64,000 nucleotides of DNA from Protoeuglena noctilucae. Its lineage: Eukaryota. Positions within the stretch are counted from its first letter, which is position 1. Every line of letters starts with the position of its first letter. Below are positions 2,401-47,615 of this stretch, piece by piece. A model generated the notes under the pieces. It was given only the letters and a program-made list of their open reading frames with translations. It was not told where the DNA came from and ran no database searches. A program made the position numbers and the translations under genes. The stretch is taken from the NCBI GenBank assembly GCA_958009085.1, contig OY253673.1:62001-126000 (forward strand), in the 5' to 3' direction.

Positions 2401-2519
2401 AAAACCCTTCGCGTTTCAGAGTGGCCTCCCGCCTGGTCAGGGCCTCTACCCTGACCGCTGTCTGTCACGCGAAGTGTGTCCCCGAAATTCTGGCGTTTTC
2501 GGCGCTGTCAGTTCGCGTT

Positions 2520-3041
2520 TCAAAGGGCTTTTTCGTCAGGCGTCGAAAGTTCGAGTCTCGCCGTTAGCTTTCCAAATGGCCAAAAAAGTTTTGCGCTGGC
2601 GCTGGTCTTACCCCACCACTGCTGCGTCCACGCGGAGTCGCGGTCACACACGATGGTCATCGGCTTCGGGCGTTGACGAGGCAACATGCTTAAGAGTCCC
2701 TTTTTTACAGACTCCTTCGTTTTGTTTTTCAGGGGATACAGGTAGACATATTTAGAAAACACGTCGACCAAAACGAGGATATACTTCACGTCTTTCGTCT
2801 GATTCGGTTTCTCAACGTGCATGATGTCGAGCATAGCAACAGCCCAAGGGGACGTGGTCATGAAGTGACCCCCTTTCGGTTTCTCGTCTCGCGGCTTCAT
2901 GACCATCCTGCGAACGTTCTCTTGCCCGAGAAGGAATTCCTTTACTTGCGACTTGCTGTATCCTTTCGAACGAACTTTGGCATACAACTTATCGATAGAA
3001 GTGTATCCCTGCTTAAAAAATGTATTGAACAGCTCCTCCAT
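2520..3041 (-). pseudogene. Retroviral-type (rve, Polinton/Maverick-like) integrase, C-terminally truncated
   Basis: AMLDIM…KYILVLVDVFSKYVYLYPLKNKT…IVCDRDS supplies the first two catalytic Asp. Integrase-like sequence stops at ~2612, before the catalytic Glu region. Confidence 0.85.
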
Positions 3042-3117
3042 ATATGAGCTTTAAAAAACCTCAACCAAAAGGGGATACGCCCCTTGAGGACTCTTGTCCA
3101 ACCGGCCTTGGCCACCC

Positions 3118-5200
3118 CTAACAAGGGGGTTTTAGGGGGCCACGCCCCCTATTGCATGACAGGCAAGCAATCCCACAGTTTTCTTTCGTGTGACCGAGGT
3201 CGTCATCTGTGCGGTCCAAAGTCCACGTGCCCTCCTGATAGAAGTCAGCGCCGCAGTGCCTGCACCGGAATTTGTCAGCCTTCAAGAGAGCCCAGATATC
3301 TTCGGTCGTGATTGTGGTCTCTTGGTCGCGTGTCTTGTCTTGTCGCGTGTACCCCACAACCTTGTCCCGAATGTATGCCTTCAGGTTCAGGAGAACGGAG
3401 CTGATACCTTGGACAAGATAGACCTTATCGAAATCCCTTGCTCGTGTGATGGCCATGTACAATTCTTCACATCCGACGAACGTGGTGCTTACCCCATGGA
3501 CATATAGGTGTCCGCTCGTACGAGACCCCTGACAGCTATGAATAGTCACCATGTTTGAGGATTCGAAGTTCTTATGAAATTGGTCTACTTTAATTTTCTG
3601 GATCACGCCGTCTTGGCCTTGCAGTTCCACAAAGGACCCGTCGTTAGACACCATGAGATATTCCGCATTTCTAACGAATTTCCCAGATGACCTCCCAGAA
3701 CTCGGTCGATAGGTCCAAGTATCTGGGGCGGCGATATTCGTCCCCAACGATTGAATGCACTTGAACGGACATAGATGTAGTCCATCACGCGGCCGTAGGC
3801 CATCGGGGCTACGCCCCCCAAGTGCCTCGTCTTCGGACAACAAGCGCTTTTGAGACAGGAACCATTCGATGCAAGCTCTCTTGTCCTTGCGCTCCACAAG
3901 CATCTCACGTAATTCTTTGAGTAATGGCTTCTGTGATTCCGGTAGGGTTTTATTTTCACGCAGGTATACCCTATGTTTGAAAATGCTCTGCTTGAGCATC
4001 CCGACTGCATCGCGGGAATATCGTGTGTCCTGGACCGGCTTCAGCTGGTCGATATCGCCGGTCATGATTAGGGTGTACTCCCGGTTCACCGCCTCCGTGG
4101 CCATTTCTCTTAATGCCGAGGTACAGAACATAAACGCTTCCTCGAGGATAACCATATTTGCGTTGGGAGAGACGTTACGTGTGGCCTTGCGGTTGATGAC
4201 CGGGAGCTCCCACCATTTGTGCGAGGTCGTGAAGTGGATATTTAGGGGGGTTGCGTCCCCTCCAAAGTACCCCTGACAGTCCAGCTTGTTCTTATTGTTC
4301 GGGCAAACGACCACGATGCGCTTCTCTTGACAGTACTTTTTGACGTAATCGACCCAGAGGCGTGTTTTTCCGGAACCGGCGTAGTGAGCTTGAATGCTCA
4401 GTCTGTTGTGTTGCTGAAGAATCTCATGGATTTGTCCCGTCATGAACTCCGTGTCATACTCTTGTTCCTTGGTGAACTCGTGGGTGATCCATCTGTTCTT
4501 TTCCTTGAATTCGGGAAGATTCGGAGGACTTAGGTCTATAGGATTCGCTTTGATTTTTCCTCGCTCTGGCAACTTGTATGAGCCCAGTTTTCCGTCATAC
4601 TTGATGTTTGGAGGCAGTCGAAAATACACAGCATCTGTCTTGATGGCCACGGGATGATACTGTAAATTTTTGTGGATGAACGTCGCTACGTTTTCAGCGG
4701 CAAGTTCCTGGAGCACACACCAAACGCTATGTTTCCACCCGTTTAGACAAACCTTACGGTCCTCGTCATACACTATATTCAGGTCAGGGTCTCCTGATAA
4801 TTTAAGTCTTGGGTTATCCTCGATTATTTTGTATGCGCTCATGGGGTCTTTGAACAACACACCTCGTTGTGCCTTCGTTCGCGAACGGCCCGCCATGCCG
4901 ATCGCCATGTTAACGATTTTCTTGACGTCTTTTAATTTCAGTGTCGACCCCTTGAGGGCGTCGCCATACAACCAATCTATGACCTCGGCGACTCCTTGAA
5001 TACGCGCGGTATATGCTGTTCTGAGTTCTCCGATGATTCTGATGGGGCGACCTTCGGCCTCTCTGTCGAATAATTTAGCCATCCTCTTGAGTACGCTACC
5101 GAGACATAGCGATAGTTCCTTTCGATAATACACTTGCTCCGAGAACCAAAATAACTGAGTCTTGTCGAGTTTCACAACGTACCAAGCAAAGTTTGTTGCG
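3118..5200 (-). CDS. Protein-primed PolB C-terminal half fused to SF1 (Pif1/RecD-like) helicase and a C-terminal HNH-type nuclease; N-terminally truncated
   Basis: PolB-like motifs KKIVNMAIG, IKTDAVYF and KLGSYK. Helicase motifs AGSGKT, ILEEAF, GDIDQLKPV, TIHSCQG and LYMAITRAR. HNH-like CRHC…WTLDRTDDDLGHTKENCGIACLSCN. Confidence 0.8.
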
Positions 5201-6004
5201 AAGGACAACCAGCAGTTATTCGGGTACTTTGTGGCCGGCATTGGATGCGGTAAGACGACTTTTCTGCTACAATTGCTCAAGAAGTATTTAAAAACACACT
5301 CGTTCGATTATGTCTTTTGGTGTAGTCCTACGAGTACGCGCGATAAGAAAGTACGATCTGTCCTCGGAAAGGCGCCCGCGGGGGTTCAAATAGTCTACGA
5401 TACCGATTTTCCATTAACCGAAATCGAACAGCTCATCGATGAGAAGCTGGAGGAATATGACCTCACGCTGAAGTACATCCCCGTGTATTGGAAATACCTC
5501 CGTTTGTATAAGTCAGTAAAGTACGACTCCGAAGAAGAAGAAATCCTCGAACTCTTCAGCGATGACGAGCTTGAGCTTCTTAATCACTTCAAATTCGAAC
5601 CTCCGACCAAGTTCCCAAACGGGAAGCCGACTTTCGCGATTGTCGTGGACGACTTCCTAGGAGACAAACACGTATTCTCGACGCATATGAATAGTCAGTT
5701 CAACCGATTTATCACCACGATGCGACACCGCAGGACATCGGTGTTTGTCAGCGTACAATCATGGACTCAGACGATTCCTCCGAGTCTGAGGAGCATGGTT
5801 AATATTTTCGCGCTGTGGAGATGCGCGAATCCCAAAATCAAAAAAGCCATGGCTGAGACGATGTGTGGGCACTACCTGACGCCGGATAAATTCCTCGAAC
5901 TATGGGACACCGCAACCAAGGATGATATTCATGACGCTTTTGTGGGAATCCTTCAGTCTCCAGAAGGCGAACGATTCCGAAAAAACCTAAACGAAAGCTT
6001 TTGA
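5200..6004 (+). CDS. A32/FtsK-HerA-type DNA packaging ATPase (PLV/virophage type); no ATG before Walker A
   Basis: Walker A AGIGCGKTT, Walker B AIVVDD, then RH and Q…IPPSLR motifs typical of viral A32-like packaging ATPases. Confidence 0.85.
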
Positions 6005-6024
6005 AAAAAGCTTGCAAAATGCCC

Positions 6025-6450
6025 TTAAAAGTAGTCTACTAGCTTCCTCGTGTTCCCAGTACGACGAGACTCCTGAATCGCCTCGCGCACCTCGGTCTCG
6101 CGCATTGTGCGTTCCTGGGGTGGAGCTTCTTGGACATATTTCGAGGATGCCGTCTTGATATTGTAAAGACGTTCCAGCAAAGCTTTCTCTTTCAGCTCTA
6201 GCTCCTTTTGCTTGACTTCAAGTTCCAGGTTCTGGAGGTCTTTTTCTTTCTGCTTCACTGACTTCAGTGCAGTCTCATGCTGAAGGCGCTCCTCCTTGCG
6301 TTGGGTTTGAACTTCACGGGCCTTTTTTAGGTCCTCCAATCGCTTAGAAATCGCCACAGGGGGCGCAGGAGCCGTGGTTTCTTGCTCTTGTCCGGGGGTT
6401 GGGGTGGAAAGTTCAGGTTCAGGCTCCGAGACAGGTTTCTTGAGGACCAT
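6025..6450 (-). CDS. Viral-element coiled-coil protein (E/K-rich)
   Basis: 141-aa intact ORF preceded by TATATAA-ATG, with heptad-rich LEDLKKARE…KQKELELKEK. Confidence 0.65.
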   Translation of the reverse strand: MVLKKPVSEPEPELSTPTPGQEQETTAPAPPVAISKRLEDLKKAREVQTQRKEERLQHETALKSVKQKEKDLQNLELEVKQKELELKEKALLERLYNIKTASSKYVQEAPPQERTMRETEVREAIQESRRTGNTRKLVDYF

Positions 6451-6474
6451 TTATATACATGCAAACAAAATAAT

Positions 6475-6891
6475 TCAGATGAGAACGCGGAGAATCACGG
6501 CAAAAGCGGCGTGCGTGGCAGAATACGACGCGCCTGTCATATCTGTAATCGTGAACGTCATGTTCTTGCTTGTGAACGGATATACGGGGATAGGTGCTGT
6601 GGGTTGAGAGGCAGCGCCGGAAATAACGTTGGACATATACCCCGTCAGCGGGTCGAAACTATGGTACAGCTGTAAATCATTTGTGGTTAGCAGGGCGTCG
6701 CTTGGCATATTGCAGGTGTTCTCCACCATAAGTCCAAACGGCTTGCCGCTCACGGATTCCAGGTGAGGGACGTCGAGATGCACTACTGTGGAACTCGAGT
6801 TTGCAGGGAATCGGACGATGATTCGGAGAGTGTGCGAGTGTCTGTCTACTGTAGGCGTTGGAGCTATCGGCTGTTGCTGCATTGCTGACAT
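6475..6891 (-). CDS. Small beta-strand-rich protein, possible minor capsid/penton-like single jelly roll
   Basis: 138-aa intact ORF with alternating hydrophobic strands and a C-terminal FTITDMTG…FAVILRV pattern reminiscent of PLV minor capsid proteins. Sits next to the ATPase. Confidence 0.45.
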   Translation of the reverse strand: MSAMQQQPIAPTPTVDRHSHTLRIIVRFPANSSSTVVHLDVPHLESVSGKPFGLMVENTCNMPSDALLTTNDLQLYHSFDPLTGYMSNVISGAASQPTAPIPVYPFTSKNMTFTITDMTGASYSATHAAFAVILRVLI

Positions 6892-6981
6892 ATATATATA
6901 TGACCTTTAAAAAAGAAGCAGTGCGATTGGCCTACGGCCTCAACCAAAACGGCGCCGTGGGCGCCATGGTGGGCGAAGCGA

Positions 6982-7004
6982 GGAGAAAAACGCTGTAAAG
7001 GATT
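6982..7004 (+). promoter_or_regulatory. Putative element promoter motif GGAGAAAAACGCYGTAAAGGRTTG, copy 1
   Basis: A near-identical copy lies at 7468-7491. Both end ~8-13 nt before an ATG. Confidence 0.5.
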
Positions 7005-7012
7005 GATGAACT

Positions 7013-7399
7013 ATGTTCATGGAGAAAAACATGACAGTCGTCGAAGCCTGGTGCCCTCTCATGAAGGAGTTCGTTCTGGTCCCTGCTACTGATAACGACA
7101 AGTTCGTGAAGTTCACGGACGATAAGTTATACCCCGTGGACTGGGTTCTATTGACCCGGGGTGATAACGATAAGGCGAGGAAAATCGCAAATAAGGAGCT
7201 ACCTGACGTCTTTATTTGCAGCGATTACCACATGAGCTGGGAGCACGACGCTGACCAGGCGATAGACCCGGGGCACCACAGGCGAGCTGGGTGCGGGATG
7301 TGCCAAGCTGCTTACGCCGGTAAGAAGCTTCTCCAGCCCATATTCCCTCCCACTCGTGAGGAGCTTGAGGCGGCGGGAATTGAGGAGGGAGACATGTGA
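7013..7399 (+). CDS. Hypothetical viral-element protein with Cys/His cluster
   Basis: 128-aa intact ORF with CSDYH…HH…CGMC. Shares an upstream motif with the 7505 ORF. Confidence 0.55.
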   Translation: MFMEKNMTVVEAWCPLMKEFVLVPATDNDKFVKFTDDKLYPVDWVLLTRGDNDKARKIANKELPDVFICSDYHMSWEHDADQAIDPGHHRRAGCGMCQAAYAGKKLLQPIFPPTREELEAAGIEEGDM

Positions 7400-7467
7400 A
7401 AGGGGGCTTTTTCCGTATTTTTTAGCGAGGGCTTGTTTACAGGCATCGCTTTTCTTCAATAGGAGGG

Positions 7468-7491
7468 GGAGAAAAACGCCGTAAAGGGTTG
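7468..7491 (+). promoter_or_regulatory. Putative element promoter motif, copy 2
   Basis: GGAGAAAAACGCCGTAAAGGGTTG upstream of ATG 7505. Confidence 0.5.
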
Positions 7492-7504
7492 CCGACGTAG
7501 GGGT

Positions 7505-7798
7505 ATGGTGATGACGACGATTGATAACACAGGCAGCGGCGAAGCCGCGACGCACGTAGTGCTGCAAGGCGAGTGGGTGAAGTGGGTCGCTCTCTGCGAC
7601 CAGCTCCAGTCCACCAGAGACGATATAAGCAAAATGCTGCGCGAGGCAGAGGCCGACGCAGAGGCCTCAGTAGAGGGCTTCACGGCGATGTACCGCAATC
7701 TATACGACCTGAAGGATGCCGAGCGGAAGATCGCGCGGAGAATCAAGCGACTCGGGCGTGCAGTGTTCTGGCGCTGGGAGCCTCCGTACCTCGGGTAG
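7505..7798 (+). CDS. Hypothetical viral-element protein (helical)
   Basis: 97-aa intact ORF. Upstream GGAGAAAAACGCYGTAAAGG motif is shared with the 7013 ORF. Confidence 0.55.
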   Translation: MVMTTIDNTGSGEAATHVVLQGEWVKWVALCDQLQSTRDDISKMLREAEADAEASVEGFTAMYRNLYDLKDAERKIARRIKRLGRAVFWRWEPPYLG

Positions 7799-7804
7799 GG
7801 GCTT

Positions 7805-7947
7805 TTCCAGGCGTCGCATGAGGCGTAGGGCGTCGCGGCGAAGCCGCTGCGTGATGGCTTGTAAAGGGGCTTGTTGACGGGCACAGGGGGGAGGCCTTCG
7901 GCCTCCCCTCCTAAAAGGCTTCCAGGCGTCGCATGAGGCGTAGGGCG
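7805..7947 (+). repeat. 28-bp direct repeat TTCCAGGCGTCGCATGAGGCGTAGGGCG (2 copies, partial third at ~8084) flanking a GC hairpin
   Basis: Copies at ~7805-7832 and ~7920-7947. Hairpin GGGGAGGCC-TTC-GGCCTCCCC at 7888-7908. Confidence 0.8.
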
Positions 7948-8102
7948 CGGCTGAAGACCGCCGGACCGTTGACCGTTGACCGTTGACTTTACAGTAATAT
8001 CGGCGTGCGCGCGCCATTACTATCATATGTAATCCTTAGTAAAGATTCAAACCGCCGATGCGCCGCTCCGCCGATCTGCGGCGTTCCAGGCGTCGCTTAC
8101 AG

Positions 8103-9332
8103 CTAGCTGGGGACCAGGTGGAACACCGCCCGCGCCGAGAGGGCCGGGGCTCGCGCGGCCGCCTTGACCGTCTCCCACACCTCCTGGGCCCTGTCACAGG
8201 CCCAGAAGGCGTGGGCGACCGTGTCGTCGTGGGAGCACTGCTCGCCATCCCTGCGGAGGAGGGGGCACGTGGTGAGGTCGAGCCAGTAGCAGTGCGATGC
8301 GGTGGCACGCGCGTCGGCCAGCGTCAGCCACAGCGCCTCGTGCATCTGCGGAGACAGGGAGAGAGCGTTGATGGTCTTGAGAGCGGCATGCATGCCCGCC
8401 GCCGTGACCCCGTCTGGCCCGTCCTGGGCCTCCCCGAGCGCCCCGGCCCGGGACCACTCCTCCACCTTGCGGGCAAGCCGCGAGGTGATGGAGGCCCGGT
8501 CGAAGGCCGCCCCCACCGCATGTCGAACCGTGTACTGCTGGAGCGGAAGGGGGACGGGCACTTCGTGGGGGCGCCGATGAGGCTCGAGGACCCACTGCGT
8601 GGAGGGGGTGACAAGGGGCAGGTTGAGCTCCGCCCACCACGCGGGCTCGGGGGCCAGGCGGGGGGCGGAGTGCGCAGCGACCGGCGCAGCCTGGGGGCGG
8701 GAAGGACGGGGGAGGAGTTGAGAGTCCTGCTGCGTGCAGTAAGCCGCCAGCGTGTGCTCCGCCCTCGCCAGGTCTGCGGGGGAGGGGATCTGGCCTGCGG
8801 CAAGGGAGCGGAGGTGAGCAGGGAGGGAGCCGCAGGCCGCAGGGGACAGAACCAGGCCCTGCCAAGGGTCCCACGCAACCAGGATACCCACGAGCTGCTC
8901 AGCCACGCCCTCAAGCACCACACGGCTGGCATTGGCACGGGGAGGCACAGGCGCGCCCACAACGCCCAGCCCCTCAAGCGCCTTGCAAACCTGGATTATT
9001 ACCCTTTTGACGGGGTCCTTTGCCGACGTCGTGTCGCCCAGGCGTAGGTGGAGTAGCCGCTCCCAGCGCGTGCCCCACAGCCGCCCGCACCACGACGCCT
9101 CCAGCACCTCCGAGGCCACGGCGCCCGGGGAGTCCCGGGCCATCTTGATCCCTGCGGCCGCGGCTCGCACACGAAGGAGGTGACCCACACACCCCAGGCG
9201 AACCTTGGCCATCTTCCGAGCCTGCGGCGGGAACGAGCCATCAGGGAAGTCTCGGCAGTCCGGGGGAGGCGTGGGCGCGCGTGGCTGAGGGTGAACGCCG
9301 CAGCGATGACCTGCAAGACCGGTTTTTTCCAT
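8103..9332 (-). mobile_element. Non-LTR retrotransposon (L1/Tx1-like) ORF2 remnant, post-RT region with zf-RVT zinc finger; truncated at both ends
   Basis: TCPLL…QCSHDDTVAHAFWACDRAQEVW matches the CxxC…ETxxHxFxxCxxAxxVW zf-RVT pattern. No RT core (YADD) or poly(A) tail seen. Confidence 0.7.
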
Positions 9333-9566
9333 GAAAGCACCCTCCGCGGACCTCGCCCCTTTATTTTGAAAAAAAAAAAAAAAAAAGCCCGCGGCGGGAT
9401 CGGAGCCCCTTTATTTTGACGTAAAAATCAGGCTCCTCCGAAGTTTTGGGGACCTCGGGACCCTCGGATTCGTTCATACTCGGGGGGTGTCAGGACACTG
9501 CGTTGCGTCGGTACTTGTATCATTTCCCGAACATGTTCAAGCAGGACCAACGAGTTCGACCCCGAT

Positions 9567-9654
9567 GGGGATGTAGCTCAGTGGTAGAGCGGCCGACTCC
9601 AGATTCGTCGACGAAGTCATCGGCAGGTCGTGTGTTCGATCCATGCCGTCCTCA
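9567..9654 (+). tRNA. trnW: tRNA-Trp(CCA) with 16-nt intron (9603-9618)
   Basis: Acceptor GGGGATG/CGTCCTC-A, D arm GCTC/GAGC, anticodon stem GCCGA/TCGGC with CT-CCA-G, T arm GTGTG-TTCGATC-CATGC, and a downstream T-run. Confidence 0.9.
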
Positions 9655-9760
9655 CTCAAGGTCGAAATCTTTTGTTGGCAGGTTTTATCATTTTTCGATA
9701 AAGCAAAAGGGGACCCTGGCCGGATTCGACTCCGGGGGATGGAGGAATCCTCCACCTTGA

Positions 9761-9843
9761 TCCTTGAGGGTAGATTCGAACTACCGACCCTGGGATCGCC
9801 GGAAGATTACAGTCCCATGCTCTACCAACTGAGCTACCCAAGG
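9761..9843 (-). tRNA. trnY: tRNA-Tyr(GTA) with 10-nt intron
   Basis: Reverse strand reads CCTTGGG-TA-GCTC-AGTTGGTA-GAGC-A-TGGGA-CT-GTA-A-[TCTTCCGGCG]-A-TCCCA-GGGTC-GGTAG-TTCGAAT-CTACC-CTCAAGG-A. C1:G72 and A73 give eukaryotic Tyr identity. Confidence 0.92.
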
Positions 9844-47415: not shown

Positions 47416-47615
47416 NNNNNNNNNNNNNNNNNNNNNNNNNNNNNNNNNNNNNNNNNNNNNNNNNNNNNNNNNNNNNNNNNNNNNNNNNNNNNNNNNNNNN
47501 NNNNNNNNNNNNNNNNNNNNNNNNNNNNNNNNNNNNNNNNNNNNNNNNNNNNNNNNNNNNNNNNNNNNNNNNNNNNNNNNNNNNNNNNNNNNNNNNNNNN
47601 NNNNNNNNNNNNNNN
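47416..47615. other. Assembly gap (200 N)
   Basis: Run of n characters. Confidence 1.

Follow-up and report, generated by a model that had tools for sequence, protein, structure and literature searches.

A probable defective member of a multi-copy family of endogenous polinton-like viruses forms a low-GC island among intron-containing eukaryotic genes

Results

The stretch of DNA analysed here (the window, 64 kb in length) contains an island with a GC content of ~50%, compared with ~69% in its flanks, which extends from ~2625 to 8030-8108. The island had been recognized in an initial annotation of the sequence, and it is evident from the GC profile, with values of 0.58-0.68 in the bins covering 1-2500, 0.46-0.52 at 2501-7500 and 0.69-0.71 from 8001. 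All seven ORFs named in that annotation are present. The features of the island are as follows:

2625..3041, minus strand: rve integrase remnant (Pfam rve), residues 1-139 of a 309-aa protein
3042..3058, minus strand: upstream motif TTTTTTAAAGCTCATAT, adjoining the ATG of the integrase; repeat family D10
3118..5187, minus strand: C-terminal ~690 residues of a pPolB-S1H-HNH fusion (Tlr1-like helicase), from Pfam, PHROG and sister alignment
~3133 to 3363, minus strand: HNH/endonuclease VII domain, C-terminus of the fusion
~3436 to 4431, minus strand: SF1B helicase, Walker A at 4363-4380
4621-4644, minus strand: stretch read as polymerase motif C, palm remnant of the fusion gene
4885-4923, minus strand: stretch read as polymerase motif B, palm remnant of the fusion gene
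5188..5206, no strand: internal breakpoint, with the 5'-truncated fusion gene and the 5'-truncated ATPase gene head-to-head
5207..6004, plus strand: A32-like (FtsK-HerA superfamily) packaging ATPase (Pox_A32), Walker A at 5237-5260
6025..6450, minus strand: 141-aa ORF, rich in Glu, Lys and Leu
6475..6891, minus strand: 138-aa ORF, cluster of 15 members (102-138 aa)
6898..6914, minus strand: the same upstream motif again (TTTTTTAAAGGTCATAT, second copy), 6 nt ahead of the start codon of the 138-aa ORF
6983-7001, plus strand: upstream motif GAGAAAAACGCTGTAAAGG, ahead of the 128-aa ORF
7013-7399, plus strand: 128-aa ORF, cluster of 9 members (112-128 aa)
7469-7487, plus strand: second copy of the GAGAAAAACGCTGTAAAGG motif, ahead of the 97-aa ORF
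7505-7798, plus strand: 97-aa ORF, cluster of 3 members
7799..8108, no strand: right edge zone of uncertain origin; repeat family D8, loose contig ends

The flanks are eukaryotic and intron-containing, as had been claimed: a spliced RNA contig revealed GT..AG introns of 82, 78 and 90 nt within 1414-1783, and Pfam recognized pieces of calpain, cyclase, Arf, P450 and eIF-2B in seven of the 89 long open frames of the window. The three-intron host RNA contig continues across the left junction at 2625, up to 2979, and a DNA contig piece begins exactly at 2625; the RNA contig and a DNA contig reach the junction from unique host sequence. The junctions had been indicated as the place where the misjoining of a contaminant would reveal itself; the left one is spanned by this spliced RNA and is therefore no misjoin.

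That the island is an assembly chimera, or a contaminant joined to host DNA, appears extremely improbable. The scaffold does contain a 200-N gap, elsewhere than in the island, the element is repeated, and neither the break at 5188-5206 nor the right edge is bridged by any of the 32 contig pieces listed; an assembly collapse between repeat copies may have occurred. Against a chimera stand the two contigs reaching the left junction, the location of sister-copy genes on contigs of 310-503 kb, and the presence of 65-80% of the sampled words of the window stretch in eight runs from two studies (one labelled with an organism, the other a marine metagenome).

The ORF at 2520-3041 (minus strand) matched Pfam rve with an E-value of 5.8e-11 (model positions 7-91 of 102). 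Compared with P0182, one of the full-length sister integrases of 309 aa, it is identical in 139 of 139 residues and then unrelated. The remnant ends past the second catalytic Asp, so that both catalytic Asp residues are kept, while the Asp-Asp-Glu core is left without its Glu and the protein without its C-terminal SH3-like domain. The Glu-containing stretch and the C-terminal domain are found only in the 309-aa sister integrases such as P0182 (rve match, E 5e-11), and the integrase family as a whole possesses the complete core. The remnant is transcribed in antisense, as the tail of the last exon of the neighbouring host gene.

The largest ORF (3118-5280, minus strand, 720 aa) matched AAA_30, an SF1 helicase family, in Pfam (E 6.9e-10) and endonuclease VII/HNH in PHROG (E 2.8e-10); the Pfam match to Endonuclease_7 (E 0.011) fell under its cut-off. 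Its identity of 90.5% to the sister proteins P0011 (1155 aa) and P0006 (1114 aa) starts at 'AWYVVKLD', and a further sister, P0002, contributes 792 N-terminal residues of the fusion protein. The window gene lacks ~550 N-terminal residues and, with these, the terminal-protein region and vOTU protease domain as well as the putative polymerase motif A; it retains only the putative motifs B and C.

A phmmer search of 1.84 billion representatives returned 499 matches (E<=1e-3), many with lengths of 1200-1320 aa. Among 46 aligned members of the fusion family, Cys233, His322, Asp510, Lys643 and Asp738 are invariant (46/46); read against the published description, the last three would be polymerase motifs A, B and C. 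The structure model of P0002 (pLDDT 70.1) found phi29 DNA polymerase in all nine of its Foldseek matches in the PDB at E<=1e-3 (best 6.7e-9). In VIA, it aligned with phi29 polymerase over 352 residues (Z 13.1, rmsd 5.6), as against Z<=7.2 for other family-B polymerases. In BFVD, the 28 matches at E<=1e-3 were mostly protein-primed polymerases. Residues 212-330 of the model resemble OTU proteases with Z 5.1-5.5 over 88-98 aligned residues, a score that is middling if taken alone. The helicase family profile matched bacterial Pif1, RecD2, RecD and Dda (E 7e-20 to 5e-13), and the Cys, His and Asn columns of the C-terminal nuclease are nearly invariant across the family. The family thus combines a pPolB palm with the three putative motifs, a vOTU domain with the invariant Cys233 and His322, an SF1B helicase and a C-terminal HNH nuclease, and the 'pPolB-helicase' originally proposed is upheld by sister proteins that are predicted to fold like the phi29 protein-primed polymerase and carry an SF1B helicase.

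Homology to the polymerase stops at 5187, and homology of the ATPase to P0015 and P0030 starts at ~5207. The ATPase ORF (5162-6004, plus strand) lacks ~20-30 N-terminal residues and a start codon, no ATG occurring from the stop at 5156-5158 up to Walker A; its full-length paralogues measure 299 and 310 aa. The Pfam match to Pox_A32 is short, spanning 31 residues at the P-loop, and passes its cut-off of 22.8 bits with 23.4 (E 4.7e-5). Walker A and Walker B are conserved in the five aligned sequences. In the Atlas feature search, the best match (0.96) was to a Pox_A32 cluster whose commonest phylum is Preplasmiviricota, and all of the 10 best family-bearing matches belong to that family or clan. 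The nearest families are therefore the Pox_A32 types of Preplasmiviricota and not cellular FtsK/HerA, the grouping that would have spoken against a viral origin. We take the head-to-head break to be a deletion rather than an assembly artefact. One sister-copy contig terminates at 5200, which is a weak hint for the internal break.

The 141-aa ORF, which probably forms a coiled coil, as judged from its sequence, had no match in Pfam or PHROG; eight of the 12 members of its cluster are likewise 141 aa long, and the other four 77-104 aa. The 138-aa ORF gave no match in Pfam; it may encode a single-jelly-roll minor capsid (penton) protein, an assignment to be regarded as a lead. Its nearest Atlas feature clusters are all viral (0.96), a cluster at 0.92 has PF21507 V18-19 in 19% of its members, and its structure neighbours in the Atlas include NCLDV-capsid and DJR-like clusters at TM 0.51-0.53. 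The AlphaFold model of this ORF has a pLDDT of 33.8, too low for use.

Two motifs recur upstream of the island's genes. The TTTTTTAAAGCTCATAT-type motif has two matches in the 64 kb at <=3 mismatches, where none is expected (100 shuffles), and the GAGAAAAACGCTGTAAAGG motif likewise has two against an expectation of zero. Within the island, coverage is highest in the segment 6983-7399 (summed depth in X2 ~1000, compared with ~199 in the single-copy flank). The following segment with the 97-aa ORF (7469-7798) is absent from some sister copies, and a joint from 7338 to 7836 in X1 and X9 omits 497 nt.

In the right edge zone, direct repeats of 28 nt lie at 7805-7832 and 7920-7947 (repeat family D8). 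An unrelated high-copy repeat begins at 8109, with loose ends 'before' 8109 in all four of four runs and an X2 depth of 39,113 at 8088-8374. The true termini of the window copy are probably absent, the left end being cut at 2625 and the right edge being ill-defined.

Sister copies with full-length genes had been predicted to exist elsewhere, and the protein clusters bear this out: on other long contigs of the same collection, the integrase (309 aa), the fusion (at least 1155 aa) and the ATPase (310 aa) occur at full length, and contigs of 310,776, 361,847 and 502,807 bp contain members of the cluster of every gene. The window copy itself had been considered a young insertion; that it is an intact one is contradicted by the cut at 2625 and the break at 5188-5206. 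Its ORFs have, literally, no internal stops, as had been stated; however, three of the seven (integrase, polymerase-helicase and ATPase) are truncated.

Discussion

The island is probably a defective copy, truncated at its ends and internally deleted, of a multi-copy endogenous polinton-like virus (PLV, Preplasmiviricota). Two PLV features are found in it, the replication gene, i.e. the pPolB-S1H-HNH fusion, and the A32-like ATPase. As far as the available text of the two sources goes, the pPolB-S1H(-nuclease) architecture is a published signature of PLVs and transpovirons (PMC5499653; PMC11161782). In the same descriptions, PLVs with a Tlr1-like helicase (Tetrahymena Tlr1, Bigelowiella natans PLVs) encode the same fusion protein in the same order, namely an N-terminal region, vOTU with conserved Cys and His, a PolB palm with motifs A, B and C, an SF1B helicase and a C-terminal homing nuclease. 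They likewise have an A32-like ATPase and are multi-copy and integrated in a protist genome; the rve integrase is as in Tlr1, and the HNH nuclease as in B. natans and metagenomic PLVs. Compared with them, the island is distant in sequence and is a fragment of 5.4 kb, in which neither capsid genes nor terminal inverted repeats nor a Tlr6F-like gene were seen.

The endogenous PLV and virophage insertions of protists (Bellas et al., 2023; PMC10120064) offer a second comparison. In the portions of that paper used here, they also have a GC content unlike that of the host, many copies per genome, an rve-type integrase with viral replication genes, and adjoining retroelement-like or other repeats. 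They measure 15-30 kb, were found via the capsid gene, and carry terminal inverted repeats in ~47% of cases, whereas in our 5.4-kb island neither a capsid gene nor terminal inverted repeats were found.

Of the initial assignment to a PLV or virophage, the PLV part stands on the gene set, but a Mavirus-type virophage is a poorer fit. A remnant of a mavirus-type virophage, or of a classical Polinton/Maverick, would share the core of rve integrase, protein-primed polymerase and A32-like ATPase (Mavirus/Maveriviricetes have an ATPase of the FtsK-HerA type), and mavirus polymerase, in which most of the exonuclease domain is missing according to published accounts, was the second-best BFVD fold match of the P0002 model (E 3.3e-9). 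However, the polymerase here is fused to an SF1B helicase and HNH, an arrangement that PMC11161782, in its available text, assigns to PLVs and transpovirons, while for mavirus it describes a stand-alone S3H helicase, along with a cysteine protease and capsid genes of the virophage type, none of which was found in the island. Pfam detected no Ulp1-like or adenain-like protease in the window, and we regard this origin as very improbable. Polintons/Mavericks sensu stricto, which have a stand-alone pPolB and an adenain/Ulp1-like maturation protease, were set aside on the same grounds, the polymerase being fused to an SF1 helicase and no protease family occurring among the island ORFs.

No major capsid gene was detected by Pfam in the seven island ORFs or the 89 long open frames, a search that covered the window; Pfam often misses the capsid proteins of PLVs because of their divergence. 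The repeat search found no terminal inverted repeats or target-site duplication around the island. All three had been suggested as features to look for in full-length copies elsewhere in the assembly; none was found at the window copy. With no major capsid gene found in the window, it is the ATPase and the literature that support the label 'virus'. This leaves room for a capsid-less integrating element, i.e. a transpoviron- or plasmid-like PLV derivative relying on the particles of another virus, which would retain the fusion, the integrase and the ATPase. The pPolB-S1H fusion and the small size are indeed shared with the transpovirons of mimivirids (PMC5499653). Nevertheless, the transpovirons described in the accessible part of that source are ~7 kb long, bounded by inverted repeats, and devoid of packaging ATPase and integrase, unlike the island, which has both genes and no inverted repeats; a transpoviron proper was rejected for this reason. 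Moreover, the 138-aa ORF has viral jelly-roll-like Atlas neighbours, and the deletion in the window copy lies exactly where further genes could have been. We consider a capsid-less element distinctly unlikely, and the PLV family presumably encodes a capsid.

From published work on the protein families concerned, we infer how such a PLV would propagate. The 309-aa rve (DDE) integrase would mediate integration, and a single large fusion protein, ordered as terminal-protein region, vOTU cysteine protease, pPolB palm, SF1B helicase and HNH nuclease, would perform protein-primed replication. The A32-like ATPase would package the DNA, and several small genes may be placed behind two shared upstream motifs. 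The window copy would be carried passively, incapable by itself of integration, replication or packaging, because its integrase lacks the Glu and the C-terminal domain, its fusion gene lacks the terminal-protein region, vOTU and motif A, its ATPase lacks a start, and no capsid gene was found in it.

No relatives were found in IMG/VR and JGI metagenome contigs, nor in GenBank phage records (tblastn), and for this reason no capsid-bearing relative is tied to the lineage; the best relative of the fusion protein outside its own family, P0032, is 32% identical. The locus is a known kind of genomic fossil, a remnant of ~5.4 kb from a lineage for which the virus collections searched contain no close relative.

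Protist genomes are now known to be full of endogenous PLVs, some of which are reactivated by giant viruses and protect the host population. The family might accordingly be imagined as a live, giant-virus-dependent PLV lineage of a GC-rich marine protist, a speculation that we hold to be rather unlikely. The upstream motifs TTTTTTAAAGSTCATAT and GAGAAAAACGCYGTAAAGG would then be promoters read by a co-infecting giant virus, and truncated copies would persist by supplying RNA or protein fragments that interfere with it. A 253-nt piece of the ATPase gene is present without mismatches in one RNA run, its depth resembling that of the host mRNA next to it.

As a probable endogenous PLV of a GC-rich marine eukaryote, the locus represents a further lineage, distant in sequence, in which an rve integrase occurs together with a pPolB-S1H-HNH fusion, and the predicted structures would lend independent support to the published domain plan of terminal protein, vOTU, palm and S1H. 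The window copy is a dead fragment, of value because it points to fuller sister copies and to two candidate promoter motifs.

Composition of the island and its flanks

In a 500-nt scan, the GC content was 0.46-0.52 at 2501-7500, compared with 0.58-0.68 on the left side and 0.69-0.71 from 8001 onward. The remainder of the window has a GC content of 0.60-0.79, with the sole exception of the bin holding a gap of 200 N (47416-47615; the record is thus a scaffold containing one or more gaps). The island contains seven ORFs without internal stops, three of which could be named by Pfam and PHROGs:

2520-3041, minus strand, rve integrase (E 5.8e-11)
3118-5280, minus strand, AAA_30 SF1 helicase with a C-terminal endonuclease VII/HNH domain (AAA_30 E 6.9e-10; PHROG E 2.8e-10)
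5162-6004, plus strand, Pox_A32 ATPase (23.4 bits, cut-off 22.8, over just 31 residues around the P-loop)

The endonuclease VII/HNH domain of the second ORF (Pfam E 0.011) falls under the Pfam cut-off, and the remaining ORFs, of 141, 138, 128 and 97 aa, matched nothing in Pfam or PHROGs. The GC scan and the seven ORFs bear out the low-GC island with named genes described in the initial annotation. The absence of internal stops, taken there as a sign of a young insertion, holds for all seven ORFs; however, the integrase, the polymerase-helicase and the ATPase are all cut short, and the copy in the window is a dead fragment. No inverted repeats bounding the island were found in the window sequence. 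Two GC-rich palindromic stretches, both containing CCTCAACCAAAA and perhaps acting as terminators or regulatory hairpins, occupy intergenic positions: one is at 3060-3090, downstream of the polymerase-helicase gene, the other at 6925-6960, where the 138-aa ORF is separated from the 128-aa ORF.

The flanking DNA is eukaryotic and intron-containing. In the host gene on the left side of the island, an RNA contig reveals introns of 82, 78 and 90 nt within 1414-1783 (1414-1495, 1550-1627 and 1694-1783), all three of the GT..AG type, and Pfam detected eukaryote-type domains, whole or partial, in 7 of the 89 long open frames (calpain, two cyclases, SufE, Arf, P450 and eIF-2B).

Edges of the element

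The integrase ORF belongs to a cluster of 19 members, mostly of 309 aa. Its sequence is identical to the sister integrase P0182 over residues 1-139 and unrelated beyond, which sets the left limit of element-derived sequence at 2625; a DNA contig piece starts at the same position. The part of the integrase that was lost comprises the Glu-containing stretch and the C-terminal domain. A spliced contig from the RNA run X10 continues from the host exons through 1784-2979, i.e. 355 nt into the integrase remnant, in antisense orientation. The left junction is real: the contaminant misjoin against which the initial annotation had warned is answered by this contig, which bridges it. Before reaching the integrase remnant, the last exon or 3' UTR of the host gene crosses 113-nt repeats at 2126-2400.

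On the right side, an unrelated, very high-copy repeat begins sharply at 8109, with loose ends at that position in all four runs; its summed depth in X2, the organism-labelled run, is 39,113 vs about 199 in the single-copy flank. The origin of the stretch 7799-8108 is uncertain. The repeat contains a 435-aa open frame (8106-9410, minus strand), initially suspected to be the tail of a non-LTR retrotransposon, including a zinc-binding domain. Because Pfam gives no match for this frame even at E 0.5, that identification was dropped and the region is called only a high-copy repeat. GC dips locally immediately to the right of the repeat, and there ARAGORN called a tRNA-Trp (CCA) of 89 nt at 9567-9655 (plus strand) and, at 9761-9843 (minus strand), a tRNA-like sequence whose anticodon has an unusual four bases.

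The polymerase-helicase fusion

Searching 5.8 billion proteins with the large ORF returned two relatives, whose cluster contains a 1114-aa form (P0006) and a 1155-aa form (P0011), both sister polymerase-helicases. To both of them the window ORF shows 90.5% identity, but only from the peptide AWYVVKLD (5164-5187) onward; upstream of this peptide, the window frame consists throughout of ATPase gene sequence in reverse complement. The missing N-terminal part is supplied by a further sister protein, P0002 (792 aa).

With P0011 as the query, phmmer retrieved 499 hits at E<=1e-3 from 1.84 billion representatives; 91 of them reached E<=1e-10 and 5 reached E<=1e-30. Many of these relatives are 1200-1320 aa long, with alignments that begin mid-protein and extend to the C-terminal end, and the closest one outside the family has 32% identity. 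When P0011 and 15 relatives were scanned with Pfam, SF1-helicase families were present in 15 of the 16 sequences and HNH alone in one, and no credible Pfam family was found in the first ~700 residues of any of them. The family profile matched the bacterial helicases Pif1, RecD2, RecD and Dda with E-values from 7e-20 to 5e-13. A search of PDB sequences gave no match for P0002 and a single irrelevant hit for the window ORF.

The N-terminal part was modelled in P0002 with AlphaFold on a 46-member family alignment, in which Cys233, His322, Asp510, Lys643, Gly651 and Asp738 (P0002 numbering) are invariant. The model has a pLDDT of 70.1, with values of 80-96 over residues 230-330 and 450-770. All nine Foldseek matches in the PDB with E<=1e-3 are phi29 DNA polymerase (best 6.7e-9), and the next match has E 0.18. 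With VIA-align, model residues 369-770 were superimposed on phi29 residues 5-497 (Z 13.1, 352 residues, rmsd 5.6); other family-B polymerases gave Z<=7.2, and residues 212-330 matched OTU deubiquitinases with Z 5.1-5.5. In BFVD, 28 matches with E<=1e-3 were obtained, mostly protein-primed polymerases: an unnamed entry was first and the mavirus polymerase second, followed by phage, tectivirus, bidnavirus-type and adintovirus polymerases. The predicted N-terminal fold confirms, at the level of the model, the polymerase and protease domains of the sister protein P0002.

It should be noted that for residues 369-455 of P0002, a protein from outside the window, the phi29 alignment begins at phi29 residue 3-6 and so nominally spans the exonuclease region. 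Published descriptions report the exonuclease domain as lost. Small glyoxalase-like folds are also matched by residues 384-438 (Z 4-5). Because the rmsd is 5-5.8 Å, no exonuclease is claimed for P0002.

What remains in the window copy is motif B (4885-4923) and motif C (4621-4644) together with the helicase and HNH domains; ~550 residues are missing from the N-terminus, the vOTU domain and motif A among them. Krupovic et al. (2016; PMC5499653) describe 'Tlr1-like helicases' of 1000-1400 aa in PLVs, Tlr1 and transpovirons, consisting of a pPolB-like domain and an SF1B helicase, with a C-terminal HNH domain as well in PLVs. A 2024 PNAS paper (PMC11161782) resolves the protein into terminal protein, vOTU, palm and S1H, notes that a Cys and a His are conserved, and predicts the polymerase to be active. 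Since the family shows the Tlr1-like helicase architecture described in these two papers, the initial 'pPolB-helicase' call was correct, and the large ORF is the signature replication protein of PLVs, here cut short.

The ATPase and the internal break

The ATPase ORF begins right after a stop codon at 5156-5158, and no ATG precedes its Walker A motif. Two full-length ATPase paralogues, P0015 (299 aa) and P0030 (310 aa), which share 55% identity with it, have ~30 residues before the P-loop; homology of the window ATPase to them begins at about 5207. The ATPase and polymerase-helicase genes, both 5'-truncated and divergent, thus abut head-to-head at 5188-5206. This is most simply explained by an internal deletion, which would have taken ~1.7 kb of the polymerase gene, the start of the ATPase and anything between them. 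A sister-copy contig ending at 5200 agrees weakly with this deletion. None of the 32 contig pieces listed (476 more exist) bridges 5188-5206 or the right edge, which is uninformative either way.

In the Atlas feature search, the nearest clusters of the ATPase are Pox_A32 families, mostly from Preplasmiviricota (best score 0.96), and the best ten family-bearing hits all share that family or clan; the A32-like assignment of the initial annotation is therefore upheld. The sole PHROG match is a marginal one to terminase (E 0.0095), and the ATPase alignment A1 gave four irrelevant matches only (E>0.5) against PDB sequences.

The window ATPase is 99% identical to the sister ATPases P0014 and P0017 and only 55% to P0015 and P0030. 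The window polymerase-helicase is 90.5% identical to P0011 and P0006, whose contigs have the same lengths as those of P0030 and P0015 and are probably the same contigs. Going by such lengths, P0011, P0030 and the sister protein P0183 probably sit on one contig of 361,847 bp, P0006 and P0015 on one of 20,097 bp, P0002 and P0182 on one of 310,776 bp, and two more sister proteins, P0005 and P0191, on one of 502,807 bp. The contrasting identities suggest two sub-lineages or an exchange of modules.

Small ORFs and upstream motifs

Protein clusters of the four small ORFs
141-aa ORF: 12 members, 8 of 141 aa and 4 of 77-104 aa
138-aa ORF: 15 members, 102-138 aa
128-aa ORF: 9 members, 112-128 aa
97-aa ORF: 3 members, 95-97 aa

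Members of these clusters share long contigs with other genes of the element, and the four ORFs are real, conserved genes of the family. No homologue of the 138-aa ORF was found beyond its own near-identical cluster. Its neighbours in the Atlas feature search are exclusively viral (0.96), V18-19, the penton family of Sputnik, is carried by 19% of the members of one cluster at 0.92, and Atlas's own model of the ORF has jelly-roll-type structure neighbours (TM 0.51-0.53); a single-sequence AlphaFold model was unusable (pLDDT 33.8). On the basis of these neighbours, the 138-aa ORF is a candidate minor capsid protein.

The motif TTTTTTAAAGSTCATAT precedes the start codons of the integrase and the 138-aa ORF, and GAGAAAAACGCYGTAAAGG those of the 128- and 97-aa ORFs. 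Each occurs in two copies in the 64 kb and nowhere else, where chance would predict none; they look like promoters of the element itself.

Sister copies and RNA

Eight runs from two studies, one organism-labelled and the other a marine metagenome, contain 65-80% of the sampled words of the island, and six RNA runs contain 5-27%. The summed depth in X2 is 137-652 over the island, ~1000 at the 128-aa ORF and ~199 in the unique left flank, a pattern that fits a low-copy repeat family. Joints in the DNA runs correspond to further deletions in sister copies: one of 175 nt within the ATPase, one of 497 nt that takes out the 97-aa ORF, and two at other places, of 77 and 44 nt.

Coverage of the island by contigs from the RNA library X9 is partial, with depths between 0 and 13. 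In X10, a single 253-nt ATPase contig (5417-5669) was found with zero mismatches and depth 87, similar to the ~91 of the adjacent host mRNA; apart from this piece and the antisense end of the host transcript, the island is uncovered in that run. As DNA carry-over is possible, expression of the element's own genes is not claimed.

Relationship to known elements

No relative of the helicase ORF, the ATPase ORF, A1, P0032, P0034 or the alignment A4 was found in IMG/VR (the alignment A3 was too divergent to yield search patterns), nor of P0011 or A4 in JGI metagenome contigs; tblastn of P0011 against GenBank phage records gave no match.

The gene complement of the island matches PLVs with a Tlr1-like helicase. 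Because of its rve integrase the island is most like Tlr1, and its HNH domain is a likeness shared with the PLVs of B. natans and of metagenomes. Transpovirons are ruled out by the presence of an ATPase and an integrase. A classical Polinton or a mavirus-type virophage fits worse, since the polymerase of the island is fused to an SF1 helicase and both a protease and an S3H helicase are absent from it. The island is probably a fragment of an endogenous PLV, a class assigned from the gene complement; no capsid-family Pfam match was found in its seven ORFs or in the 89 long open frames of the window.

A large-scale description of endogenous PLVs, 15-30 kb long, contrasting in GC with their surroundings and lying beside retroelements, is already given in PMC10120064, and a 2026 preprint catalogues SF1-fusion replication genes combined with rve integrases. 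Endogenous PLVs and such gene combinations are therefore already known, and the family found in P. noctilucae is a new, sequence-distant lineage among them.
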